Notes: generated by a model from the letters alone, not told the origin. 64,000 bases of DNA from Nanobdellota archaeon (GCA_024654505.1 JANLHN010000003.1:132314-196313); one strand, 5' to 3'. Numbered from the stretch's first letter, positions 13,295 to 61,931 are shown. Numbers and translations are program-made.

Positions 13295-13765
13295 ATGATA
13301 AACTTATTTAATTTTTCAGTTTTTGTGGGGATAATTTTTGAACCATTAGCTATGGTAATAATTGGTCTAGCGATTGCACTTTATTTGTTTGTGAGAAAAA
13401 TGAATAGAAGAGGATATTTCTTTGCTTCTATTTTAATTATTGCAGGAATTTTGATAAAGTTGTTTAAAGAATTTATTCAGAAGGCTAGACCATTGGATAT
13501 GCTTATTCAAGAGACAGGTTATGCTTTTCCAAGTGGACATGCAACAATTTCTGTTGTTTTCTTTGGCTCTCTTGCTTACCTAATATCTAGGAATAAATCT
13601 CAGAAGATTAAAGTTTTGTCTTCGGTGATTGCAGGAATTCTTGTTTTAATTACGGGATTTACAAGATTATATCTTGGAGTCCATGATGTCTATGATGTTC
13701 TCGGAGGATTTGTCCTTGGAGGGATAGTCTTAGTTATAGGGATTTTGTGGTTTGGGAAGGAGTAA
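13295..13765 (+). CDS. PAP2-family phosphatase (membrane)
   Basis: Three PAP2 motifs are present: KARPLD, PSGH, and LYLGVHDVYD. The protein has multiple TM helices. Confidence 0.65.
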   Translation: MINLFNFSVFVGIIFEPLAMVIIGLAIALYLFVRKMNRRGYFFASILIIAGILIKLFKEFIQKARPLDMLIQETGYAFPSGHATISVVFFGSLAYLISRNKSQKIKVLSSVIAGILVLITGFTRLYLGVHDVYDVLGGFVLGGIVLVIGILWFGKE

Positions 13766-14498
13766 GAAATTTTTCTAATTTTTTAAGATATCTTTCTAGC
13801 TTCTGGATATATGCCCTTTTCTCTTCTAGGCTTTTATGTGGTGTTTTGAAGTATAGCTTAAAAGTATCATGAACTATGTGGTCTTTATCTTTGATTGATT
13901 TGGTTAGTTTTTTCCAGCTATGTGGTGGATTTTTGCCCAAGACTTTTTGTTCATTTTCTATAAGCCAGAATATTTGTTTTAAAATTTCATGAATGTGGAA
14001 CTTGCCTTTTTTATAATCTGGTAAGAACCATGAGTTGAAGATCCCTATCATGTTTTTTAGTCTTTTTTCATGGCTTCCTTTAGGTAATGATTCAACGTTC
14101 AATGGTTCTCCGTAGATTAATTTGTAATTTTTCAAATGTTCAATCACTCTACTTGGAGCAGTTCCGGTATTTTTTCTTATCTTTAATCTTTTATTATTCT
14201 TTAACTCCCATAAAGAAAGACTGCCTAATTGAATCGGGGGTGAAAATTTCTTTCTATACTCTTTTTCTAGTTTCTTAATCTTCCCCACATATTTAGACCT
14301 TTTTAGCATGGTTGTCAAATCCACATCGCTATATTTGTTCATTTCACGACGAACAAAACTTCCTTTTAGGTAGATGGCAATAATTTCTTCTTGAGGGATA
14401 TTTTTGAGAATAATCTTTCTTGCAGATTTAACAGACTTTATTGCTTGTTTTTCTAGTTTTGTAACTCTCTTCCAGTCCTTCCAAAACCCAAAGTCCAT
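13734..14498 (-). CDS. Pol-beta-superfamily nucleotidyltransferase domain protein
   Basis: The motif GSFVRREMNKYSDVDL has the GS-x(n)-D-x-D pattern of minimal nucleotidyltransferases. Confidence 0.45.
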   Translation of the reverse strand: MDFGFWKDWKRVTKLEKQAIKSVKSARKIILKNIPQEEIIAIYLKGSFVRREMNKYSDVDLTTMLKRSKYVGKIKKLEKEYRKKFSPPIQLGSLSLWELKNNKRLKIRKNTGTAPSRVIEHLKNYKLIYGEPLNVESLPKGSHEKRLKNMIGIFNSWFLPDYKKGKFHIHEILKQIFWLIENEQKVLGKNPPHSWKKLTKSIKDKDHIVHDTFKLYFKTPHKSLEEKRAYIQKLERYLKKLEKFLTPSQTTKSL

Positions 14499-18420: not shown

Positions 18421-18492
18421 GCCTCAATAGTATAGTGGTTAGTACGTGGCCCTGTCGCGGCCAAGATCCGGGTTCAATCCCCGGTTGGGGCG
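18421..18492 (+). tRNA. tRNA-Asp (anticodon GUC)
   Basis: A 72-nt cloverleaf with acceptor GCCTCAA/TTGGGGC. The anticodon stem is TGGCC/GGCCA with loop CTGTCGC. The T arm is CCGGG-TTCAATC-CCCGG and the discriminator is G. Confidence 0.8.
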
Positions 18493-19038
18493 TAATACCT
18501 TTTTGACGGAATCAGGGGTTGTGTTTTCATTTAGCCTGATTCTTATCTTATTTTTTAATTGTCTTTTTTTATCTTCTTCTTTAAGAAATAGCTTACCTGC
18601 ATTAGTTAATACGATTTCTTTTTTTAAGAATCCAGAAATATGTTCTAAATAGAATAAGTTATTCATTTTTCCTCTGCCGTCAGGATCATTTATTATGGGT
18701 TTTGTTTTACTGAATATTTTATGGTATTCGTTGTTATTAACTCTGCCACCATCATTTCTTATCTTATCTAAAACAGAATATACTATGTCATCTCCCTTGG
18801 AATTTATTGTCATTGAAACCAATACTGGCACTCCCTTCCTGCTTTCTTTCGGAGAAGGATTAAGATTGACCAATCCTTTCTCATATAGACCTCTGCAATA
18901 TCTCCAAGCATTTTTAAAATCCATCTTTAGTTCTTGAGATATCTCTGAAATTGTTTTTGGTTTTTCCCAAAGTAAATTGATAATGTCTGCTTCTTTTATA
19001 GTTACTTTCTCTCCTAAGGGGTTAGTTATGTCATTCAT
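18439..19038 (-). CDS. Winged-HTH protein (putative transcriptional regulator); 3' end runs antisense through tRNA-Asp
   Basis: The N-terminal wHTH is ISEISQELKMDFKNAWRYCRGLYEKGLV. The ORF stop lies inside the tRNA gene on the other strand, so the C-terminus (…RGLNPDLGRDRATY) is uncertain. Confidence 0.4.
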   Translation of the reverse strand: MNDITNPLGEKVTIKEADIINLLWEKPKTISEISQELKMDFKNAWRYCRGLYEKGLVNLNPSPKESRKGVPVLVSMTINSKGDDIVYSVLDKIRNDGGRVNNNEYHKIFSKTKPIINDPDGRGKMNNLFYLEHISGFLKKEIVLTNAGKLFLKEEDKKRQLKNKIRIRLNENTTPDSVKKVLRPNRGLNPDLGRDRATY

Positions 19039-21236: not shown

Positions 21237-22091
21237 ATGGAATTGGAGTATCTCCCAATGTTAGTTGAGGGAAAAGATATAACTCAGAATGAGATTCTCT
21301 TTATTTCCGACATAGAACATTTTGATCAGAAGATTAATACTTATTTATTAGATAGGATAAAAAAGGAGAGTTATAAGGCAGTTGTTTTAGTAGGAGATAT
21401 TTTATCGGGACTTGGAACATTCCATCCAGCATATAAAATCTTCCAAGAAAGCAATACGGCCTTTAATCTATTTTTTGATGTTAAGAAGCTAATGAAGAAA
21501 TATCTAAAGAAAGGTATTGAAGTGTATGATGTGGAAAGGTTTTGTGTTGGGAGTGTTGTATCTGATAACTTTTCAGAAAGCTACTCTAAAGAATTAAAAA
21601 ATTTCAAAAAATTTATAAAAAGATGTCATAAGGAGAAGATTCCAGTGGTCTTTTTTTCAGGAAATCATGATTCTCTCTTATCTCCGGGAAACGCTTATGA
21701 AACGAGGTTTATACCATTAATAGAAGAAATTCGTTCATTAAAGGGATTAATCATCCCAGGAGATTTAGAACTCATAAAGCTAGGAAAGGACCTTTACCTT
21801 ATGGGTGTTCATACTGAAGATGATGATATTAAAGAGCATGAATTCCATAAGATTAAGAACATCTTGAAAGAAATTGAAGCCATAAAAAACCCGGAAAATA
21901 TTATCTTTGTCTCTCATATTCCTGGAATTAAAAAATTTAGTAAGCTTGGGTCTCATGATATTACAAATCTAAAAAAAAGATATAAATTCAAGTATCATTA
22001 TCATGGCCATTGTAAAAATTACTATGGAGAATATGACGAGGAGGGAGTTCCAACAAAGTCAATCCATATAGAAGATGGTTTAGTTAGTTAA
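21237..22091 (+). CDS. Calcineurin-like metallophosphoesterase
   Basis: The motifs VVLVGDILSG (GD), FFSGNHD (GNHD/E), VSHIPG and GHCKNYY fit the MPP motif series. Confidence 0.55.
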   Translation: MELEYLPMLVEGKDITQNEILFISDIEHFDQKINTYLLDRIKKESYKAVVLVGDILSGLGTFHPAYKIFQESNTAFNLFFDVKKLMKKYLKKGIEVYDVERFCVGSVVSDNFSESYSKELKNFKKFIKRCHKEKIPVVFFSGNHDSLLSPGNAYETRFIPLIEEIRSLKGLIIPGDLELIKLGKDLYLMGVHTEDDDIKEHEFHKIKNILKEIEAIKNPENIIFVSHIPGIKKFSKLGSHDITNLKKRYKFKYHYHGHCKNYYGEYDEEGVPTKSIHIEDGLVS

Positions 22092-22097
22092 CTTAAA

Positions 22098-25000
22098 TTA
22101 TAATAGTTTCTTTATCTCTCGATCTAGTCTTTTTACTTCAGAATCTTCATTTTTCCACCAGTCCCTACTCCAAACTCGAAGAATGTTCCATCCGGAATTT
22201 TCCAAAATTTCTTGTCTATAAATGTCTCTTTCCTTTGCACTTTTTGATGAGTGGTACATTGCACCATCGCACTCTATCCCAACAATAAATTTTCCTTTTT
22301 GCTTTGGATGAACAACTGCAAGGTCAATCTTATATCCTTTACATCCAACTTGAGTTTTTATTTTATAGCCAATTTTAGACAGGGCATCCCTAACCTCTCC
22401 CTCAAAATCACTATCGTATGATTCAAATTCTGGCGATTCGGCATCTATTTTAAGTTCATTTAGAGAATCTAACTTTTCATCAGCCCTCTTGTAGTCTCCT
22501 TCAGAGATATACTTAGAATAGCTGAGGTAATCTCGCAAGAGTTTTGGCCCATCGAACGAACCACTATATTTCAATTCACTTGGGTCAAACGAGTTAAATA
22601 TTATTATTTTCTCTCTAGCTCTGCTTATTGCAACGTTAAGCCTATTAGGTCCATAAGGGCCGTTAAGAGGACCAAACATATATCTAAATTTCTTTGTTTT
22701 ATCGAAACCATAACTTATTGAAAAGATAATGATATCTCTTTCATCTCCCTGAACATTCTCAATATTTTTAACAAATATACCCGTATATTCATCTTGATTA
22801 TATCTTTCTCTTTCAGAATCGAGTAATTTTGCAAATAAGGGGTCCTTTGCAGCTTCTTCATCTAAAAGTTCTTCAATCAAGTCTTTTTGTTTAACATTAA
22901 AGGTTATAACTCCAAGAGTTGGCTGTTCTTTAGTTTTGAGTAACTCTTTTATCTTTTTTACAACTTCTTCAGCCTCTCGAAGGTTTATGCCCGAGTCCCA
23001 AATTCCCCTAACATTTTTGTATTCTATTGCCGTATCTTTCTTAACTTTATTTTTTGGAATAACCCTTAACGACTTATCATAGAAAGCATAGTTTGAAAAA
23101 TTAATTAATTCTTCATGGTTTGACCTATAATGGTATATAAGACGTTTTCCAGGAAGTGTTGTTTTTGCTCTTTCAAGTAAAGACTCGTTTTCTAGTAGCT
23201 GTTGTTCATCATAGTCTTCAAATTTTTCATCTTCAAATTCTTCTTGGGAAGCCATAAAAAATCTGCTTGGAGGCAACTGTTTTTCATCGCCAGCAACGAT
23301 TAAACTTTTTCCACGATTTATAGAAGGGATTGCCTTTTCAAGTCTTGTTTGTGAAGCTTCATCAAAAATAACTACATCAAAAAGATCTTTCTTTAAGGGG
23401 AATATAGATGATACTGTTTCTGGTGAACACATCCAACAAGGAAATAACTCTAAAAGACCTTCCCTATAGAATACATTGAAAAGTTCTCTAAACGTTAGTC
23501 TCTTTCTCTGTTTATTTAATTCATGAACCAGCCCTCTTAAATTATTATAATTTTTTCTTCTCCCATCATAATCATAATTTTTCCACTTTAGTTCGCTATA
23601 TTTATTCATAAAAGACTCATAGATGACTTCCGGTATAACTTCAATTTTTTTATTTATTAATTCAACTAATTTATTTTTGATTGATTGATAAGTTTCATCA
23701 GAAAAACTTCGAATTATAGGGTCATTAGATTCTGATTCATTAATCCAATGAATGAAGAAGCTATTTTCTATTGTTTTCCTCCAGATAGGGGTCATGTCAT
23801 CTCCCAAGTTTTGGCGAATACTACTATAGCATAAATTGGCAATCTTATACTCTAAGTTAGTCAACTTCTCAAGATTAGAATCAAAAAGAACAATCTCATC
23901 TAACTCCCCAAACAACTCTTTTATTTTAACAAAAATGATTGAATTCTTTTCAAAATTGATGAAGTTTTTTTCAATAGACTCTAAAAACTCTTCTTTAAAT
24001 AATAGGCGAATAAAGCTTAAAGAATCTTTTAGACTCTTAAGGGGTTTTTCCAATAAGTTCCATCTTTCAATTAGTTTTTCAAAGTCTTCAGGCGAACGAA
24101 TTTTAGAGTATTTTGATTTTAAACTCCACCATTTAGAGTCGAATATTCTCGAGAACCTATTCTTCTCTTTATCTTTTAAAAACTTAAGTTCTTCAGAGAT
24201 GTTGAATAGTTCCTCAATATTTAATTTTCTCTTAAAATTAATTAATTTTAAATCACTTTTAAATTCTTTATTATAAAAAGTCTTTTCAAGATTTTCAAAA
24301 ACTTTTATTGTATTTGCTACCTTCTCTTTAAATTCTAGCTCGTCAAATTTAGTGCTAAATCTTTTTCTAAGATAAATCGGTGAATCACTTTTTTCATATT
24401 TATAAAATTGGTTTGCAATCTTAGATATGCTCTCACTATAGGTCTTTAAATCATTAAAACTAACTTTTTCAAATAATTCACCTTTGATGTCCAAGATTGG
24501 TTTTTGTTCCTTATTAGAATGTCGGTAGAGTGAGTATAGGCTTATACCATGTTTACCTTTATCATGTATTAAACTAATTAATTTTTTTAATTCTAAAAGA
24601 CCCATATCAAAAGATTTAGCTTTTTCAAGCATCTTCTTCATATTTGGCTCTCCAGAAAAGCCATCTACCCCATCATCCTTTAGGTCGTATGCATTTAATG
24701 TAGAGGCCATCTGCTTAAAAATTTGATTTCTATCATTTTGGGAATCGTGGATGAGCAGACAGTGTTTGCTTATGCCCTTAGAAGCTAGTCTATTCTTCAC
24801 AACATCAAGTGCAGCTCTTTTTTCACAGACCAATAATATCTTTTTATCTCTTAGTAAGTTATCTGCAATAAGATTAGTAATTACTTGAGATTTTCCCGTT
24901 CCAGGAGGACCATGGATTACTAATCCTTTACCAGTTCTAGATTTGATTAAAACTTGCTCTTGACTTATATCTGGCTTAGTTATAAAATAATTATCTGCCT

Positions 25001-25856
25001 CTGGGGAATCAATTAATTTTTCATCATCAAATCTTTCTTCAAGGTCTCTTTCAGTATTTTCTCCAAGTATCAACTTAGAAGAATCAGATAAACTTTTGTC
25101 TTTTATTAGTTCATCATAATCATTATTCATTGCACTATTAAGTTGACTAAATTCTCCCAAGATAGCATAGGGTAGAAATTCTATTTTCCCAGAAAGATTT
25201 TTAGGATGCTCATCTTTAATAAGTGGTTTTAATGAATCAATCTTTGTTTTTTTAAATGTGTTAATATTTGTTTCCATGTTCAATCCCTCAAACAATTGTA
25301 CTGACCATTCAATCAACTCTTCAGACTTCAAATCCTCAATTTTTTTTAAATCTTCTAAATTTAAATTTTTATAACCCTTATTATATTTATTAAAAGCAAT
25401 AAAGAATGTCTTGTTTATTTGAACTGAAGAATCTGGAAGAGGTTTTATAGTAACTTTTCTAGTCGCCCTGTTAAAGTCTATTTGAATTGGGACAAGAAAT
25501 AAAGGTGCTCTAAAAAAAGAACCTTCAGAAAAGTTTCCCTGTATAAATGGGTAACCTAAGAAGCATTCATGATAACCTTTCTCTTTAAGTATAAACTCTA
25601 CATCTCTCTTAAGATATAGAATGTCTTTTAGAATTCTCTCTTCCTCTTTATTTTTAACGTTAATATCAATGAGGTTAGCAGATTTATTTTCAAAAAAAAG
25701 CTTGTTAACTACTTGGATTGGCTGATCACTTTCTATGTTAGATAAATCAGAAATATCAAAGGTTTTCTTTTTTATAATTCTGGAAAGTCTAATTGCTCTA
25801 TTTCTTCGACTAATATCATTTAATCTCTCCTGATACTTCTTGAGAACTTTCTCCAT
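22098..25856 (-). CDS. DUF4011 – Upf1-like SF1B helicase – DUF559 (Vsr-like endonuclease) fusion protein
   Basis: Walker A is IHGPPGTGKS and the Walker B region is VIFDEASQT...VAGDEKQLPP. Motifs YRSNHEELINFSNYAFY, GVITFNVKQ and NVQGDERDIIIFS match the Upf1/DNA2 series. The C-terminus DLAVVHPKQKGKFIVGIECDGAMYH...ILRVW matches the DUF559 nuclease fold. The roughly 300-aa N-terminal domain resembles DUF4011. Confidence 0.75.
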   Translation of the reverse strand: MEKVLKKYQERLNDISRRNRAIRLSRIIKKKTFDISDLSNIESDQPIQVVNKLFFENKSANLIDINVKNKEEERILKDILYLKRDVEFILKEKGYHECFLGYPFIQGNFSEGSFFRAPLFLVPIQIDFNRATRKVTIKPLPDSSVQINKTFFIAFNKYNKGYKNLNLEDLKKIEDLKSEELIEWSVQLFEGLNMETNINTFKKTKIDSLKPLIKDEHPKNLSGKIEFLPYAILGEFSQLNSAMNNDYDELIKDKSLSDSSKLILGENTERDLEERFDDEKLIDSPEADNYFITKPDISQEQVLIKSRTGKGLVIHGPPGTGKSQVITNLIADNLLRDKKILLVCEKRAALDVVKNRLASKGISKHCLLIHDSQNDRNQIFKQMASTLNAYDLKDDGVDGFSGEPNMKKMLEKAKSFDMGLLELKKLISLIHDKGKHGISLYSLYRHSNKEQKPILDIKGELFEKVSFNDLKTYSESISKIANQFYKYEKSDSPIYLRKRFSTKFDELEFKEKVANTIKVFENLEKTFYNKEFKSDLKLINFKRKLNIEELFNISEELKFLKDKEKNRFSRIFDSKWWSLKSKYSKIRSPEDFEKLIERWNLLEKPLKSLKDSLSFIRLLFKEEFLESIEKNFINFEKNSIIFVKIKELFGELDEIVLFDSNLEKLTNLEYKIANLCYSSIRQNLGDDMTPIWRKTIENSFFIHWINESESNDPIIRSFSDETYQSIKNKLVELINKKIEVIPEVIYESFMNKYSELKWKNYDYDGRRKNYNNLRGLVHELNKQRKRLTFRELFNVFYREGLLELFPCWMCSPETVSSIFPLKKDLFDVVIFDEASQTRLEKAIPSINRGKSLIVAGDEKQLPPSRFFMASQEEFEDEKFEDYDEQQLLENESLLERAKTTLPGKRLIYHYRSNHEELINFSNYAFYDKSLRVIPKNKVKKDTAIEYKNVRGIWDSGINLREAEEVVKKIKELLKTKEQPTLGVITFNVKQKDLIEELLDEEAAKDPLFAKLLDSERERYNQDEYTGIFVKNIENVQGDERDIIIFSISYGFDKTKKFRYMFGPLNGPYGPNRLNVAISRAREKIIIFNSFDPSELKYSGSFDGPKLLRDYLSYSKYISEGDYKRADEKLDSLNELKIDAESPEFESYDSDFEGEVRDALSKIGYKIKTQVGCKGYKIDLAVVHPKQKGKFIVGIECDGAMYHSSKSAKERDIYRQEILENSGWNILRVWSRDWWKNEDSEVKRLDREIKKLL

Positions 25857-54457: not shown

Positions 54458-56338
54458 TTGATTCAAAATATAGATATGGACAAAAGCCATAAGAAATTAT
54501 CTGAGAGTGGTTCTGTAGAGCAAAATTTGGCTAAAGATTATGTTCCCAAATCTAAACTTGGAAGTCTTCCAATGTCTGAGAGTATTGATGAAACATTAAA
54601 AAAGAAAATGGATGCTACCCAGAAAGGAATTATAAAATTTAAGGATGAGCTCACAAAAAAATACAAATTTATTGAAGTGGTTGGAATAATTCCTGCTCAG
54701 GCTGCTCAAAAGATAGAAGAGGAGTATGAAATTTCTGAAGCAGATACTAAAAGGGGCCTTATCCACTTATTGATTGTAATCCCTGAAAAACATTTTAAGA
54801 ACATTGGGAAAATTCGGCTTGATGCTATTGATATGGCTAAGAAGATTAACGATAAGTTTTGGGCCCATATAATGACCCCTGTTGATATTTGGAATTTAGG
54901 TCTTGACTCTAAATTTGATGTTATGGAAGCTATTTCTATGTCTTATCCTGTTTTAGATAAGAATGGATTACTTGGTTCACTTAGAGTTACACAAATCCAT
55001 AAATCTTTGGTATTAAGGAAATTTGAAAAGTATGTAACAAGTTATGTTATTGGGGGTTCAATTGTCCGTGGAGAAACTACAAAAACTTCGGATGTGGATG
55101 TGTTTGTTATAATTGATGACACGGATGTTAAACGAATGCCTCGACTCGAATTAAAAGAGAAGCTTAGGGGGATAATTTATTCTTATATCCAAGAAGCAGA
55201 AACAATGTCTGGGGTGAAAAATAAACTGTCTCCTCAAATTTATTTGATGACTGATTTTTGGGATGCTGTAAAAGATGCTCACCCAGTTATGTTTACTTTT
55301 ATCAGGGACGGGATTCCATTATATGACCGGGGGGCATTTTTGCCTTGGAAATCTCTCCTTAGAATGGGAAAGATTAGACCTTCTCCCGAAGCAATGGATA
55401 TGTTTATGTCCTCAGGAGATAAGTTAAAAGAAACTGTTGAACGAAGAGTCTTTGATATTGCAACATTAGATTTATTCTATGGAATTTTTACACCAACCCA
55501 AGGCCTTTTGATGCTTTATGGACAAGCACCCAAAAACCATAGAGAAACTGTTAAGGCATTTAGAGAAACTTTTGTAGATAAAGAAAAAATGATAGAGAAG
55601 CGATATGCAGATATTCTTGAAGAAATTGTAATTGAGTATTTTAAGGGAATGGAACATGGAAAGTTAAAACCGGGAGATGTTAGTGGAGCAAAGTTAGATG
55701 AATTGACAAAAAATTCTTTGGATTATATAAAAAGACTTAAGGAACTCAGAGAACAAATTGAGAAGAGGGTCCAGGAAAAATCTATTGAGCAAGTCTATGA
55801 CGATGTTTTTGGAATGCTTGGTGCGCTTTTAAAGAAGAGTGGAGAGGCTGCAATAATAAAAGCTTTTGATGAAAAACTAGTCAAGGAAGGAAAATTCCCT
55901 CCAAAATTCTTGAATAGTTTAAGGTTGATTTCCCAAACAAAAAAGACAGTGGTTAAAACCTGTGGAGAAACTGGAAAAAAGAAGGATCGTAGTTTAACTG
56001 CTAAGCAGAGTCGACATGTAGATAATGCAAGAAAGTTAGGATTAGAAATTACAAATGCTTTGGTAGAATATACTCAAAGAAAGGAGATTGCATCTTTTAA
56101 TAAAGTCCGATTTTTACTGAAAGGAAGAAATTCTGATGCAGAAATTCTCTTTTTAAAAGAGACTTTTATTACCCAGGGTGGGAAAATTCAAAAGATTTCT
56201 AATGGAAATGTGGTTGATTCTACTCCAGAAGAGCTTGAAGAACAGATTGATTCTCAAAAGGGAACGGGAGTCAAGATTGATTTTAAGGCAATGGACGTCT
56301 TAAAGAAGATGTTTGGGGAATTTGAGTTGATTCAATAA
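54458..56338 (+). CDS. Large Pol-beta-superfamily nucleotidyltransferase domain protein
   Basis: The motif GGSIVRGETTKTSDVDVFVIIDD (GS...D-x-D) sits around residue 205 of 626. The flanking domains are unassigned. Confidence 0.5.
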   Translation: MIQNIDMDKSHKKLSESGSVEQNLAKDYVPKSKLGSLPMSESIDETLKKKMDATQKGIIKFKDELTKKYKFIEVVGIIPAQAAQKIEEEYEISEADTKRGLIHLLIVIPEKHFKNIGKIRLDAIDMAKKINDKFWAHIMTPVDIWNLGLDSKFDVMEAISMSYPVLDKNGLLGSLRVTQIHKSLVLRKFEKYVTSYVIGGSIVRGETTKTSDVDVFVIIDDTDVKRMPRLELKEKLRGIIYSYIQEAETMSGVKNKLSPQIYLMTDFWDAVKDAHPVMFTFIRDGIPLYDRGAFLPWKSLLRMGKIRPSPEAMDMFMSSGDKLKETVERRVFDIATLDLFYGIFTPTQGLLMLYGQAPKNHRETVKAFRETFVDKEKMIEKRYADILEEIVIEYFKGMEHGKLKPGDVSGAKLDELTKNSLDYIKRLKELREQIEKRVQEKSIEQVYDDVFGMLGALLKKSGEAAIIKAFDEKLVKEGKFPPKFLNSLRLISQTKKTVVKTCGETGKKKDRSLTAKQSRHVDNARKLGLEITNALVEYTQRKEIASFNKVRFLLKGRNSDAEILFLKETFITQGGKIQKISNGNVVDSTPEELEEQIDSQKGTGVKIDFKAMDVLKKMFGEFELIQ

Positions 56339-57200: not shown

Positions 57201-58280
57201 ATGAAAAAATTCTTTGTTTTGGGTCGTAATCCTACACTCTCGCGTTTGGAAGTTTTATCTTTTTTGGAAGCTAGGAAGAGGGAGTATAAAGAAATTTTAT
57301 TCGATGAGAATCTTTTGGTCTTGGAATTTCCTGGTGAGGAGAAGGTGAATGTTCAGGAGTTTGGAGGTGTTTTAAAAATTGGAGATATATTATTTGAGGG
57401 TGAAGAGAAAGATTTTAGAAATTATTTAGATGGTGAAGAGATTATACCTTCAGATAAATTTTCTTATTCTATTTTTGGGAATGGAGACGAAGATTTAATT
57501 AAACAGAAGTTTAAATCTGAAAAGAAAAAGGCTGTATTAAGGCGTGGCCGTAATCGTATGAAAATGCAAGAGGGTTCTTTTTTGAATGTGGGAAATGCTG
57601 ATTTTTCTTTGTTTTACTATAAAAAAAATGATATGGTCCTATTTGGTTTAGTTAATCAAGACTATAATTACGAGCCCGTTAAGGACCGTGATATGAACAA
57701 ACCCGTTCGAAGAGAGGAATTGGCTATTTCCCCAAGATTGGCTAAAATTCTAATTAATCTTGCAGGTTCTAAACCAGGTTCTTTGCTTTTAGACCCCTTT
57801 TGTGGGATTGGAGGGATATTGCAGGAATCTTTAGTTAAGGGCATTAAGTGTTATGGTATAGACCACAATCAGGAGGCAATAAAGGATGCCGAGAAGAATC
57901 TTAAATGGTTATGTGGAAAGTATAATATTAGGGGAGATTACCGGCTAGAAAATATTGATTCTCGTAAGGCCCCCGATCTACAGTTTGGTTCTATTGCAAC
58001 AGAGACCCCCTTAGGGGTTGTTTTACGTAAGAAACCTAATGATAACCATGCCAAGAAGATAATCCTTGATTTTGAGGCTTTAATGATACCTATCCTTTTG
58101 AGACTTAAGAAAGTTAAGAAGCCGGGTGCTAAAATATCAATTACTTTTCCTGTGGTTAGGGGTTTCCATGTTAATGCCGGGAAGGTTGCCGGGAAGGTTG
58201 GATTAAGGATACTTAACGGACCTATTTTAGAATCTCGTGAGGACCAGTTCATTTCTAGAGATATTGTAGTTTTTGTTTAG
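57201..58280 (+). CDS. THUMP-domain SAM-dependent tRNA/rRNA methyltransferase (Trm11/Trm14-like)
   Basis: The N-terminal ferredoxin-like/THUMP region is followed by the MTase motif I LLDPFCGIGGIL and a class I fold. Confidence 0.55.
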   Translation: MKKFFVLGRNPTLSRLEVLSFLEARKREYKEILFDENLLVLEFPGEEKVNVQEFGGVLKIGDILFEGEEKDFRNYLDGEEIIPSDKFSYSIFGNGDEDLIKQKFKSEKKKAVLRRGRNRMKMQEGSFLNVGNADFSLFYYKKNDMVLFGLVNQDYNYEPVKDRDMNKPVRREELAISPRLAKILINLAGSKPGSLLLDPFCGIGGILQESLVKGIKCYGIDHNQEAIKDAEKNLKWLCGKYNIRGDYRLENIDSRKAPDLQFGSIATETPLGVVLRKKPNDNHAKKIILDFEALMIPILLRLKKVKKPGAKISITFPVVRGFHVNAGKVAGKVGLRILNGPILESREDQFISRDIVVFV

Positions 58281-58327
58281 ATTATTAAAAGCGAAACCTT
58301 TATATACTTATTTCTCCAAGGTATTTC

Positions 58328-58744
58328 ATGGAAAAAACACCTATTTCACAAGGAAATACCTGGAATACCTCAGGAGATATTGAAGCTATGGGGACTGGAG
58401 GAGTAGACTCTCTTAAAGAAGCTATTGAGGAGGTAGATGAGTTAATTAGAAAGAGAGAAATTCTAAGTCAGAGGTTTCTTGCTGAGGGAGAAAAAATGAA
58501 GACAAAGATTAATAATTTCTTGTCTGAAAGTGCTCCTAAGGGAGATGATGATTCTGAATTTGCTCGTGAACGGGCAGAGCTTAGAAAAAAACAGATTGAA
58601 ATTTCTGAGATGCAATTGAATGAAACTGTTGGTGCCTGGAGAGATATCGCCCTTTTGAAAAAGGAATTAAGAGATAGAACCAAGGAATTACATGAAAAAA
58701 CTAGTAGGGCTGAAGCTCTTGGAAGGATTATGGAGGGAGAATGA
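58328..58744 (+). CDS. Coiled-coil protein, translationally coupled to downstream ATPase
   Basis: A 138-aa ORF. Its stop overlaps the start of 58741 (ATGA). Confidence 0.4.
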   Translation: MEKTPISQGNTWNTSGDIEAMGTGGVDSLKEAIEEVDELIRKREILSQRFLAEGEKMKTKINNFLSESAPKGDDDSEFARERAELRKKQIEISEMQLNETVGAWRDIALLKKELRDRTKELHEKTSRAEALGRIMEGE

Positions 58745-60648
58745 CATTTCAACACCCATTAACTGTTGAAGAAATTTGTAATAAACTTCGTCCTGTTTAT
58801 GGAGATAAAGTAGATAAGATTTATTTTCAGTATACCGTAGCAGAAAGTAAAGAAGAAAAGGAAGAAATATTCCATTTTTTGAATGCATTATATCAAAAGA
58901 ACCTAAGTAAACTTCTTGACACTGGTGTTTTGTTAGAACCTCCTAGAGAAGAGATGATTGATGGAACTTATGAACTAGGGACGGTAAGTTATGCTAATAG
59001 GAGACTTTTTCCATTTAAATTGAGGGAAAAAGATTGGCCTAGGCATGTTTGTATTACTGGGATGTCGGGTTCTGGAAAAACGACTTTGGCTTTTAGTATT
59101 GTAGATGCTCTAAAGAAAAATGGTAAGCCTTTTTTGATTTTTGACTGGAAAAAATCTTTTAGGCCGTTGTTAAAAGAAGACCATTCTTTATTATGTTTTA
59201 CTGTTGGAAATGATTTAGTTAGTAACTTGTTTAAAACAAATATAAATCAGCCACCAAGAGGGGTTGCTCCAAAAGAGTGGATTAATGTTTTGGCGGATTT
59301 ATTGACTGAATGTTTCTACGCATCTTTTGGTGTTCATAAAGTTATTTTGGAAACTCTTGATGAGGCATTTAAGGAATGGGGAATTTATAATGGATCTCTT
59401 AATTATCCTACCTGGAATCATATTAAGTGGAGGTTAGAAGAAAAACTAAAGAAACAGACGGGTAGAGAAGGTGGTTGGTTAGAGTCTGCCCTAAGAATTG
59501 CTACAGTACTAACTTTCGGAGAATTTGGAAAGACGGTTAATTATAAGGGAGAGAATAGTGTTTCCGTAGAGGACCTATTGAACCAAAGAGTAATTTTAGA
59601 ACTTAATTCGTTAGGGAATATTGAAAAAACTTTCTTTTGTGATTTTGTTTTAATGTATATTTACAAATTGAAAAAAGTTACACAAACAGAAGTTAATCAC
59701 AGTTTTGATCATGCAATTATTGTTGATGAGGCCCATAATATCTTTCTTAAAAGAGAGACTAATTTTGCTAATGAATCTGTAACTGATATGATTTATAGGG
59801 AAATGAGAGAGTATGGGACAAGTCTTATTTGTTTAGACCAACATATTTCTAAAATATCGGATACAGTTAAGGGAAATAGTGCTTGCCATATGGCTTTTCA
59901 ACAGCAATTACCTGCAGATGTTTCAGACATTAGTGATTTGATGCAACTTTGGGAGAAAAAACATTACTTCTCTCAGCTACCTGTTGGAAGTGCGATTGTA
60001 AAACTTTCTGAAAGATATACAAAACCCTTCTTAGTAGAGGTTCCATTGGCAAATGTTAGGAATTTTGATGTAAATGATGTAGAAGTAAGGAGTAGAATGA
60101 ATGCAATGAGTTTGACTAAAGATTTCGAGAAGAATATCGACGAGGAATTTAATGAAGAAATAATTCAACCAAGGCCTGTCTTTGAAGAATCTGAAAAAGT
60201 TATTAGTGATGAAGAAACAAAACCAAGAAATATTGGAGATATTTTATATAATTTTGTTATTGGTTACTTAAATAAAGGTGTTGAACTCCATGAAGTTGAG
60301 AAGATTTTAGAAGAAAGTAAGTCTCAAGGTGGGTATACTTCTGAAGATATAATTAAGGTCATCAATCGTGTCTTTGAGGAACAAGGAAAAGTAAAGTTTA
60401 AAAAAGAGGAGTCCCCTAATAATCTTGGCGATGGATTAAATCAAAATCCCGATAGGCAAGAATTCCTTGAATTTTTGCAAAAGAACCCGAACCATAATTT
60501 TAGTACAGTTGAACTGTACAAACAAATTGGTCTTTCCCCTAGGAAAGGCACTAAAATAAAAAAGGAGCTCGAAGCCGAAGAGCTCATTCGGGTTGAAGAA
60601 GAAAAGAATGAGAAAGGTTGGAAGAAATATATCCGCCTCGCTCGTTAA
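58741..60648 (+). CDS. HerA/DUF87-family P-loop ATPase with C-terminal winged helix
   Basis: Walker A is ITGMSGSGKTT. PFLIFDWKKSF resembles the HerA L-I-F-D-x-x-G-E-Y region. Walker B is IIVDEAHNIF. The C-terminal wHTH is FSTVELYKQIGLSPRKGTKIKKELEAEEL. Confidence 0.6.
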   Translation: MTFQHPLTVEEICNKLRPVYGDKVDKIYFQYTVAESKEEKEEIFHFLNALYQKNLSKLLDTGVLLEPPREEMIDGTYELGTVSYANRRLFPFKLREKDWPRHVCITGMSGSGKTTLAFSIVDALKKNGKPFLIFDWKKSFRPLLKEDHSLLCFTVGNDLVSNLFKTNINQPPRGVAPKEWINVLADLLTECFYASFGVHKVILETLDEAFKEWGIYNGSLNYPTWNHIKWRLEEKLKKQTGREGGWLESALRIATVLTFGEFGKTVNYKGENSVSVEDLLNQRVILELNSLGNIEKTFFCDFVLMYIYKLKKVTQTEVNHSFDHAIIVDEAHNIFLKRETNFANESVTDMIYREMREYGTSLICLDQHISKISDTVKGNSACHMAFQQQLPADVSDISDLMQLWEKKHYFSQLPVGSAIVKLSERYTKPFLVEVPLANVRNFDVNDVEVRSRMNAMSLTKDFEKNIDEEFNEEIIQPRPVFEESEKVISDEETKPRNIGDILYNFVIGYLNKGVELHEVEKILEESKSQGGYTSEDIIKVINRVFEEQGKVKFKKEESPNNLGDGLNQNPDRQEFLEFLQKNPNHNFSTVELYKQIGLSPRKGTKIKKELEAEELIRVEEEKNEKGWKKYIRLAR

Positions 60649-61026
60649 TCATACTTTCACACATCACGACATCCACACACAAAACCAGTAACGACATGAG
60701 CTTTACCGCCCATCTCAACACTCCAGAAACTCGTGGATAAGCAAGATACTTTCAAATGGAAACTTTTGAGAGAATCTATGTGCTAGTCGTGACTGTGTTT
60801 CTGAAACAAATGCGTCGGAATATCTTAGAAATAAGTGTCTGACGTATGCTCTGATGGTGAAATACGTGTCTTAAGTCACTTAGCTTATACAAAGCGCTGG
60901 ATGTCTCCTTGAGGGAGGGCTTCCAGAGAAACGGGGTGTTCCTGTAGTGGCTGTTTTTTGTCGCCCTGATGGTCGGGGTGATTCTTTTTATCGGCTGAGA
61001 CGAAGGCGTCTCGGGAAGGAGTTCGC

Positions 61027-61272
61027 GTGATTAGGATGGGCAACGGACATAGGAGTTCGGAGAAGAAGGAGGGGAAGGTGAAGATAGTGAGGACACCTGC
61101 TCCCCCTTCTGATGAGGCACTGCTTCAGGAGCGGCTGCGCCAGATGGATGTGGCTTCCGGGAAGCTGCCCAGGATGGGGCGGAAGAAGGGGAACAACGGC
61201 TTCAACGGGGAGTCGAACGGCCAGCAGCTAGATGACCCGCTCCGTTCGATGATCCTCCCCAACCACCTCTAG
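61027..61272 (+). CDS. Small basic ORF in GC island
   Basis: GTG start with AAGGAG upstream. 81 aa. Confidence 0.3.
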   Translation: MIRMGNGHRSSEKKEGKVKIVRTPAPPSDEALLQERLRQMDVASGKLPRMGRKKGNNGFNGESNGQQLDDPLRSMILPNHL

Positions 61273-61281
61273 AAGGGAGGG

Positions 61282-61557
61282 GTGATGGGACGGAAGAAGC
61301 AGTGCTATGGGAGAGAGGGAGTCTGTTTGACTCCTAATTGTCCCTACGCCCTGGGTTGTATCCAGATCTGGGGCAGAGACCGACTCCTTAAGAAGAGGGG
61401 AGTTGGGGTAGAACAAAGCGTGCCGAGGGGCTCGGTGCGTTCCAAGGGCCCGCAGGGCAAAGTGTCCCGGGAAAGAAGAATTGGAGGGAGGATAGTAAGT
61501 GAGCAGACCGATTTTCTCAACACCATCTCAGATGATGGTGGGACTCCCAGAAGTTAG
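61282..61557 (+). CDS. Small Cys-containing ORF in GC island
   Basis: CYGREGVCLTPNCPYALGC in the N-terminus. 91 aa. Confidence 0.3.
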   Translation: MMGRKKQCYGREGVCLTPNCPYALGCIQIWGRDRLLKKRGVGVEQSVPRGSVRSKGPQGKVSRERRIGGRIVSEQTDFLNTISDDGGTPRS

Positions 61558-61843
61558 TGGGGGGAGGAAGGTCTCGGTGGACCGCGCCCTGGAAGTCCTG
61601 GGGTTGACGGCATCCACCTTCAGAGACAAGATACAGAGGGAGGAAGGTTTCGACATGGATAACCTCGTTGCTGGGGGGAAGAAGTTCTCTGCGAAGGGGG
61701 CGCCTCTGGCTGGGGGGGAATTCCTCCTCCGGGTCTTCATCGGAGGAAACATCGAGGCCAGAGTTCTCCTGGACCCTGAACGACAGAGGGTACTCTCAAC
61801 TCAGGAAGTCCAGATGACTAGAGAGGGGGTAGTGGCCCTGTAA
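61499..61843 (+). CDS. Excisionase/AlpA-like HTH protein (in GC island)
   Basis: VSVDRALEVLGLTASTFRDKIQREEGF fits the Xis/HTH_17 pattern L-s-x-x-E-a-a-x-l-L-G-v-S-x-s-T-x-y-R. Confidence 0.35.
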   Translation: MSRPIFSTPSQMMVGLPEVSGGRKVSVDRALEVLGLTASTFRDKIQREEGFDMDNLVAGGKKFSAKGAPLAGGEFLLRVFIGGNIEARVLLDPERQRVLSTQEVQMTREGVVAL

Positions 61844-61872
61844 GAGGTCATGGGCTCCTAGACGGGACGATG

Positions 61873-61931
61873 CTGGGGGTGTGGGCTAGGGAGGAAGTTC
61901 TGCCTACACCCCCAGACAGGCTGATTTTTTT
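61873..61931 (+). terminator. GC-rich hairpin (10-bp stem) followed by T7
   Basis: CTGGGGGTGT...ACACCCCCAG then ...ctgattttttt. The stem includes GGGTGTGGGC, identical to the tRNA-Ser 3'-end core. Confidence 0.35.

Follow-up and report, generated by a model that had tools for sequence, protein, structure and literature searches.

What is a protein that joins a Upf1-like helicase to a restriction-type nuclease doing in an archaeon, and does it act alone? The question is raised by a gene on the minus strand of a 64,000-nucleotide stretch of DNA from a Nanobdellota archaeon (GCA_024654505.1, JANLHN010000003.1:132314-196313), referred to here as the window, which encodes 1252 amino acids comprising a DUF4011 region, a helicase motor of superfamily 1B (SF1B) and a C-terminal nuclease of the Vsr type. 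With a probability of roughly 60%, we consider the product to be a stand-alone, single-polypeptide nuclease-helicase directed against viruses and plasmids, a compact version of the Hhe/ProA type found moving among DPANN archaea. The observed basis for defence consists of an intact open reading frame (ORF), a full catalytic motor and nuclease, homology to the validated Hhe/ProA proteins, the absence of a partner gene, and the adjacency of restriction-modification (R-M) or Shedu genes in DPANN relatives. A preliminary description of the locus, made from its sequence, had proposed the three-domain architecture, which Pfam, the conserved motifs, AlphaFold and Foldseek bear out, as well as a candidate single-protein system against mobile genetic elements, a proposal that holds.

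A complete motor and a complete nuclease in one polypeptide

ORF calling and translation of the window gave an uninterrupted frame with an ATG start, within which the following parts were delimited.

22098..25856, minus strand: the whole gene, a fusion of DUF4011, SF1B helicase and Vsr-type nuclease (compact Hhe-like protein), from the ORF, its translation, Pfam, PADLOC and NCBIfam.
25062..25856, minus strand: N-terminal alpha/beta domain, amino acids 1-265, which holds DUF4011 and is presumed to be a sensor or regulatory module.
24672..24971, minus strand: first half of RecA1, amino acids ~296-395, with the Walker A motif GPPGTGKS (K322) and motif Ia, from invariant motifs, secondary structure in the model and the 46% identity to Hhe in this part.
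23457..24671, minus strand: all-helical insertion of ~400 amino acids within RecA1, amino acids ~396-800, from the helices of the AF2 model and conserved tryptophans.
23247..23456, minus strand: second half of RecA1, amino acids ~801-870, with motif II DEASQ (D832, E833) and motif III GDEKQLPP, from invariant motifs and the second AAA_11 stretch.
22572..23219, minus strand: RecA2, amino acids ~880-1095, with motifs IV-VI (YHYRS, VQGDERD, NRLNVAISRA; R1072, R1079), from AAA_12 and invariant motifs.
22113..22406, minus strand: C-terminal Vsr-type PD-(D/E)xK nuclease (MTES_1575/DUF559), amino acids 1151-1248, with D1178, E1195, D1197, H1202 and K1208, from Pfam and residue conservation.

Pfam matched DUF4011 at amino acids 14-150 (E 3e-7, 31 bits with a cut-off of 22.2), AAA_11 at 298-380 and in a second stretch, AAA_12 at 891-1087 (E 7e-18) and the MTES_1575 restriction-endonuclease fold at 1151-1248 (E 5.6e-35), the latter region being overlapped more weakly by DUF559 (E 5e-6). 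In alignments of 32 and 80 homologues of archaeal and bacterial origin every superfamily 1 (SF1) motif is invariant, namely GPPGTGKS at 316-323, DEASQ at 832-836, GDEKQLPP at 856-863, YHYRS at 908-912, VQGDERD at 1035-1041 and NRLNVAISRA at 1071-1080. The nuclease core (D1178, E1195-C-D1197, H1202, K1208, R1210 and D1211) is likewise invariant or nearly so, although the preliminary description had reckoned with the possibility that these residues might not be conserved. Judged from these residues, the motor and the nuclease active site are both catalytically complete within the one polypeptide.

An AlphaFold model of amino acids 1-1140 (pLDDT 85.7, pTM 0.71) shows the N-terminal alpha/beta domain, a short disordered linker, RecA1 split by the helical insertion, and RecA2. 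The insertion helices, H404 to H799, have pLDDT values mostly above 80, and the alignment shows five conserved tryptophans (W576, W577, W599, W692 and W704) in the insertion. The N-terminal domain has no conserved set of acidic and lysine catalytic residues in the alignment and no structural match. Foldseek placed the motor nearest the Upf1-like SF1B helicases SETX/Sen1, Aquarius, UPF1, IGHMBP2, Dna2 and ZNFX1, which have the same motor fold (E 1e-13 to 1e-8) at a sequence identity of 10-25%, and nsp13; a sequence search of the PDB returned IGHMBP2 and Sen1 alone, weakly. The accessory domains are unlike those of the Upf1-like helicases, as no CH domain, no iron-sulphur (Fe-S) nuclease and no Upf1-type 1B/1C barrel was identified. 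Dna2 also couples an SF1B motor to a PD-(D/E)xK nuclease, but its nuclease is N-terminal and carries an Fe-S cluster, whereas that of the window protein is C-terminal and of Vsr/MTES_1575 type, so that the definition of a Dna2-type enzyme does not apply.

A compact branch of the Hhe/ProA family

The best-scoring named models were those of ProA and PDC-S37, with which the window protein has the helicase-nuclease core in common. PADLOC matched PDC-S37 in three stretches (E 2.2e-196, 653 bits) and Hhe with E 9.6e-112, while the NCBIfam model for ProA (NF058533, 'anti-phage protein ProA') gave 683 bits (9e-205) and that for Hhe (NF042953) 526 bits (2.6e-157), below the equivalog cut-offs of 1500 and 2000 bits, respectively. 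Coverage was partial, comprising mainly profile positions 1205-1683 of 1797 for Hhe, a best stretch of 1180-1706 of 1903 for ProA, and a best stretch of 714-1340 of 1550 for PDC-S37 (PDLC05009), which a ProA-type protein spans from 9 to 1531. Two controls gave the expected results: a PGAP-annotated Hhe from a Klebsiella plasmid, with a coding DNA 99.8-100% identical to that of E. coli hhe, scored 2735 bits on the Hhe model, and a DUF3320-tailed Raoultella plasmid protein of 1963 amino acids scored 2224 bits on the ProA model and spans the whole of PDC-S37. The PDC-S37 model is broad and also matches Hhe (1267 bits). Two compact relatives, P0023 from Bacillales and P0003 from a DPANN genome, score like the window protein. 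By comparison, the IGHMBP2 model gave 73 bits with a cut-off of 349, and the RecD model was likewise far under its cut-off.

Hhe (Gao et al. 2020; NF042953; PADLOC PDLC02194) is a single gene with the identical domain order, that is, DUF4011, an SF1 helicase split by a RecA1 insertion, and an MTES_1575/Vsr-type nuclease; all four Pfam families are above cut-off in the window protein and ordered as in the PGAP-annotated Hhe. Identity between the two proteins is 36% across RecA2 and the nuclease and 46% around Walker A. Hhe is longer by ~650 amino acids (1911 compared with 1252), a difference distributed over a more extended DUF4011 region (129 Pfam bits compared with 31), a RecA1 insertion of ~800 rather than ~400 amino acids (~520-1320), and a C-terminal tail of ~130 amino acids that the window protein lacks. 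ProA and PDC-S37 represent a DUF3320-tailed long form, whereas the window protein stops at the nuclease and has no C-terminal DUF3320 region. Since its scores are far below both equivalog cut-offs and it is ~650 amino acids shorter, we assign it, on these comparisons, to a third, compact (~1250 amino acids), unnamed and very widespread branch, and not to the equivalogs of Hhe or ProA. The superfamily comprises 7,897 clusters (50% identity, E<=1e-30), with lengths continuous from ~1,170 to ~2,300 amino acids.

By these profile matches the protein thus falls into an already known family, the Hhe/ProA/PDC-S37 kind, rather than into a new category of system, and the earlier label of a largely uncharacterised family has to be withdrawn. 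E. coli Hhe is a validated single-gene defence against lambda, T3, T7 and PhiV-1, which the nuclease mutation E1731A abolishes (bioRxiv 10.1101/2022.06.16.496414). In the annotated 1911-residue Hhe the sole glutamate near this published position is E1727, within an IECDG motif, and the difference in numbering is explained by an alternative in-frame ATG lying four codons before the annotated start. This glutamate is the one with which E1195 of the window protein aligns. In a phage-genetics preprint a Bas63 gene is reported to be toxic only when hhe is present and several T7 class II DNA-metabolism genes to act as triggers, so that Hhe seems to respond to a process and not to a single protein (bioRxiv 10.1101/2024.10.10.617714). 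The literature searched yielded no paper devoted to ProA or to PDC-S37.

Two further defence systems were compared. The Mokosh proteins have a related Upf1-like SF1 helicase core (PADLOC, MkoA 6e-33, MkoC 1.7e-28) but differ in their effector, have neither DUF4011 nor a Vsr-type nuclease, and score an order of magnitude under PDC-S37/Hhe. Nhi follows a similar logic, one polypeptide with a nuclease and an SF1 helicase that restricts phage DNA, but it differs in domain order and nuclease type. The comparison with Nhi made in the preliminary description consequently stands as an analogy and falls as family-level homology, a PADLOC scan of the protein having returned no match to an Nhi model at E<=0.01.

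Distribution and origin

Among the 120 best homologues listed, 119 carry the MTES_1575 nuclease, the exception being P0025, a Woesearchaeota protein; the best homologues are hence not the nuclease-less, Upf1-like housekeeping helicases of RNA decay that the preliminary description had named as the contrary case. About 20 homologues with 42-70% identity come from metagenome-assembled genomes of the Nanoarchaeota/Woesearchaeota type or from unlabelled metagenomes, followed by a very large set of ~1250-residue proteins from Bacillales, Clostridia and Cytophagales with ~35% identity over the full length. The archaeal assignment of the genome was confirmed by an identical protein on record from a Nanoarchaeota archaeon metagenome-assembled genome and by the presence in the window of genes for TruD, an XPD-type helicase and a chaperonin of thermosome type (609 bits). 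An exact look-up of the window protein in a contig index gave no record.

In a neighbour-joining tree, constructed without support values, the window protein lies within one DPANN-type clade of ~20 sequences. Bacillales, Cytophagales and Clostridia form clades distinct from it, and Hhe occupies a long separate branch. The GC content of the gene (0.307, z -1.4) and of its third codon positions (GC3 0.247, z -0.9) is inside the range of the neighbouring genes. Horizontal acquisition, suggested earlier, is unsupported as a recent event from bacteria, given the host-like composition and the DPANN-type clade. Within DPANN the gene is mobile, because its genomic position varies among relatives. Its occurrence in about 20 DPANN-type clusters and that of hhe in 302 of 5426 complete E. 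coli genomes amount to a patchy, accessory distribution. According to a 2026 survey, R-M and CRISPR systems are scarce in DPANN archaea, whereas compact single-gene candidates are enriched (PMC12988326).

A separate observation from the same tree concerns the gut. Compact genes of gut Methanomassiliicoccales and Thermoplasmata (L038-L043, L081 and nearby tips) are interleaved with those of Lachnospiraceae and Bifidobacteriaceae on very short branches, a pattern that, as far as the tree can be relied on, indicates recent transfer of the helicase-nuclease gene between archaea and bacteria in gut communities.

Genomic context of the relatives

The immediate surroundings of the gene in the DPANN relatives were as follows.

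P0003 (locus L001, 62% identity): between a UvrD/PD-(D/E)xK protein and a complete Type I R-M system.
P0004 (locus L092, 61% identity): overlaps the end of an HsdM gene.
P0007 (locus L003, 58% identity): follows a DEAD/MZB helicase of 1291 amino acids.
P0006 (locus L093, 57% identity): followed by Shedu, a NucS-like gene and a methyltransferase/ResIII pair.
P0011 (locus L006, 56% identity): adjoins a Type I R-M system, with PIN, NYN and HEPN-MNT genes.
P0013 (locus L004, 55% identity): among housekeeping genes (DnaK/DnaJ/ScpA).

PDC families in PADLOC are candidates defined by their embedding in BREX, DISARM or Type I R-M loci (bioRxiv 10.1101/2024.01.29.577857), and such adjacency to Type I R-M was found at L001, L006 and L092, not in the window itself. 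Counted within 10 kb, Type I R-M genes occur at 3 independent loci of about 84 (L001/L002, L006 and L012), and the island at L001 contains an integrase homologue. No partner is conserved: at 53 loci sampled from the wider family, with 105 immediate neighbours in all, no Pfam family occurs more than 5 times. The defence-island signal is thus strong among the DPANN relatives but weak among the bacterial loci sampled.

At two of these loci a fusion of a UvrD helicase with a PD-(D/E)xK nuclease lies directly upstream of the gene, co-directional and overlapping it or 1 nucleotide off (L001 7284-10001, L093 1-1005). The two copies are 47% identical, and a pairing of two nuclease-helicases in this sub-lineage is possible.

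Proposed mechanism and points against it

In the mechanism that we propose, DUF4011 and the helical insertion in RecA1 would form the sensing or autoinhibitory part of the protein. The SF1B motor would load on single-stranded or branched DNA that arises when a virus or plasmid replicates or recombines and, using ATP, would translocate in what is presumably the 5'->3' direction, and the C-terminal Vsr-type PD-(D/E)xK domain would cut the DNA, whereby the invader is stopped or the infection aborted. That the substrate is DNA and not RNA is inferred, as are the direction of translocation, the nature of the trigger and what DUF4011 and the insertion do. A possible mechanistic parallel is Hachiman HamAB, in which a helicase that surveys DNA integrity is reported to free or activate a nuclease on damaged or foreign DNA (PMC12278908); Hachiman differs in consisting of two proteins, a helicase of superfamily 2 (SF2) type and an unrelated nuclease, and is likened by mechanism, with no homology claimed.

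Several points weigh against a defence function. No experimentally tested member of the compact branch was found in the literature searched, the mechanism of Hhe itself is unsolved, and with scores so far under the ProA and Hhe cut-offs and the smaller size the function may differ. Among the bacterial loci sampled, Type I R-M genes lie within 10 kb in 1 of ~80, and the immediate neighbours are mostly ordinary genes; P0013 sits in a housekeeping setting; and searches of the window with Pfam, PADLOC and for repeats revealed no convincing defence neighbours, integrase, Rep or att repeat. A DUF4011 protein is, moreover, a core gene in P. aeruginosa, so that the superfamily is not always accessory (PMC10250203).

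The convergent metallophosphoesterase

The neighbour of the helicase-nuclease gene at its 3' side is a calcineurin-like metallophosphoesterase (MPP), and the two features needed here are the following.

21237..22091, plus strand: MPP of 284 amino acids, convergent with the helicase-nuclease gene (Pfam Metallophos, E 2e-8); a gene of mobile-element type, probably no functional partner.
18421..18492, plus strand: tRNA-Asp(GTC), 2.7 kb from the MPP gene, a possible former integration site.

As described earlier, and as the ORFs and Pfam agree, the stop codons of the two genes are 6 nucleotides apart, tail to tail. With 27 homologues, the MPP forms a small family; a metagenome scan yielded 4 loci, one identical to L090, and a viral scan returned no locus. 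Outside the two cases linked to the helicase, members with usable flanks are always inside mobile elements. At L088, L089 and L090 a tyrosine integrase stands beside tRNA-Ser, tRNA-Asp and tRNA-Arg, respectively, together with the MPP, and these loci jointly carry Rep_1, an N6_N4 methyltransferase and ResIII pair, a TnsA-like gene, DUF6602, RusA, a resolvase and an HNH gene. The MPP directly follows the methyltransferase and ResIII pair in L088, a small TnsA-like gene intervenes in L089, and in L090 it is flanked by the resolvase and the HNH gene, with no adjacent helicase. At L098 the MPP is accompanied by integrases, a resolvase, a MazE-like protein and a NERD protein, again with no adjacent helicase, and ParA is found on a second contig that carries the identical MPP. 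Most simply, the MPP would belong to the backbone of an integrative element of DPANN and the Candidate Phyla Radiation (CPR), and the adjacent slot would hold variable cargo of restriction type, which at L088 and L089 is the methyltransferase-ResIII pair and at L091 and in the window the DUF4011 helicase-nuclease.

The association with the helicase-nuclease recurs once. Beside its closest relative, P0002 (70% identity, L091), an MPP homologue that is cut by the contig end starts 12 nucleotides after the helicase stop codon and is co-directional. Compared over one shared stretch of 103 residues, the copies from the window and L091 are the most distant pair, with 43% identity, each being 55-61% identical to element-borne copies. 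Because the orientation is opposite and the divergence discordant, the sequences suggest that MPP and helicase were juxtaposed twice, independently.

If the MPP marks an element backbone, the helicase-nuclease may serve the element rather than the cell, excluding competitors or stabilising the element from the variable slot, and the window would then hold a decayed remnant. This possibility, which we hold to be rather unlikely, draws on the constant company of integrases, Rep_1, resolvase or ParA beside tRNA genes, on the changing contents of the slot upstream of the MPP, on the tRNA-Asp near the window copy (the related element in L089 is integrated at tRNA-Asp) and on the integrase homologue in the L001 island. 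It is met by the facts that the MPP is the only gene common to the window and the elements of L088-L090 and L098, that integrase, Rep and att repeat are missing from the window, and that the composition of the helicase-nuclease gene is host-like; it also differs from cellular defence in the beneficiary alone, the mechanism being the same. An intact island bounded by the tRNA-Asp was rejected, as the window contains neither a direct repeat of the tRNA, with no second copy of its 3' half, nor an integrase or Rep gene. An ORF of 199 amino acids with a helix-turn-helix domain (18439-19038, minus strand) overlaps, as called, the 3' half of tRNA-Asp(GTC) by 54 nucleotides, which reflects either a different real 3' end of the ORF or an integration scar.

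A two-gene module, raised in the preliminary description, would have the MPP and the helicase-nuclease act together in a DPANN sub-lineage, with the MPP, for example, processing DNA ends or a nucleotide signal. The close spacing in the window and at L091, the apparently independent juxtapositions, the co-directional position of the MPP downstream of an SF2 ResIII paired with a DNA methyltransferase in L088 and L089, and a weak PADLOC match of the MPP to the candidate PDC-S10 (2.5e-5) are consistent with such a module. On the other side, no MPP (Pfam Metallophos) occurs among the 105 immediate neighbours at 53 helicase loci, tblastn found none in 86 helicase loci, it is missing from 5 of the 7 other DPANN-clade loci with readable flanks, it lacks an adjacent helicase in L090 and L098, and the convergent arrangement in the window rules out co-transcription. 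As a conserved partner the MPP was rejected for the family as a whole, a verdict softened by the adjacency at L091. A functional link is possible as a minority reading and is disfavoured because the window pair is convergent, most relatives have no MPP and the validated Hhe works alone, so we judge the module unlikely. We are more doubtful still about a broader version, in which the MPP family would be an unrecognised DPANN/CPR element accessory that pairs repeatedly with helicase restriction modules (SF1 DUF4011, or SF2 ResIII with a methyltransferase), making the window a two-component, Hhe-like variant with the MPP in a modulating or downstream role.

Housekeeping and RNA-directed alternatives

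The helicase-nuclease could also be a housekeeping enzyme of DNA repair or replication, similar to Dna2 or AddAB and kept in a reduced DPANN genome for end resection or flap processing. The structural likeness of its motor to Dna2 and other Upf1-like SF1B helicases, the lack of defence neighbours in the window, the setting of the L004 relative and the core status of a DUF4011 gene in P. aeruginosa would all accord with this. A housekeeping gene is difficult to reconcile, however, with an occurrence in only about 20 DPANN-type clusters, in which no two relatives have the gene at the same place and synteny is lacking, or with the frequent horizontal transfer implied by gut Methanomassiliicoccales copies interleaved with those of gut Firmicutes and Bifidobacteriaceae. 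The best family matches, furthermore, are anti-phage models, with IGHMBP2 and RecD far under their cut-offs, and several relatives directly adjoin R-M or Shedu genes, so that we consider a housekeeping role very unlikely.

That the protein is a Upf1-like RNA helicase with an RNA-cleaving nuclease acting on viral or aberrant transcripts is highly improbable, for although its best solved structural matches are the RNA helicases SETX/Sen1, UPF1, IGHMBP2 and Aquarius, Pfam gives a weak RAP-domain match (5e-4) and the helicase core is related to Mokosh MkoA/MkoC, the nuclease belongs to the Vsr/MTES_1575 restriction-endonuclease type, the Vsr/DUF559 class acts on DNA, Upf1-like motors such as Dna2 work on DNA too, and the reported Hhe triggers are DNA-metabolism genes.

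Other features of the window

Three further regions of the window were recorded. At 61000-61900 a patch of ~0.9 kb with ~58% GC stands in a genome of ~34% GC; its ORFs are all small (81, 91 and 114 amino acids), and Rfam has nothing matching it at a threshold as lax as E<=0.01. The patch could be a foreign insert, an element of unknown kind or an assembly chimera. Adjacent genes at 57201-60648 encode a DNA methyltransferase-like protein (UPF0020/N6_N4_Mtase) and a HerA/DUF87-like ATPase with weak PADLOC matches to mad2 (1.6e-12) and mad8 (2.7e-13) of MADS, and could represent a fragment or distant relative of a modification-based defence. Minimal nucleotidyltransferase proteins (Polbeta/NTP_transf_2) are encoded at 13734-14498 and 54458-56338, with weak PADLOC matches to PDC-S09 and PDC-M05A; PDC-M05 is an archaea-enriched candidate of the MNT-HEPN type.

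Significance for DPANN defence

The result confirms an expected pattern rather than overturning one, and the recurrent adjacency of the MPP is a minor thread within it. If the defence reading is true, it adds a clade of DPANN archaea to the helicase-nuclease defences of the Hhe/ProA type, in keeping with the recent observation that symbionts with reduced genomes favour compact single-gene systems (PMC12988326). At 1252 amino acids the compact form keeps every catalytic motif of the 1911-residue Hhe and models confidently, and could be the more tractable protein in which to study sensing and cutting of the Hhe type.

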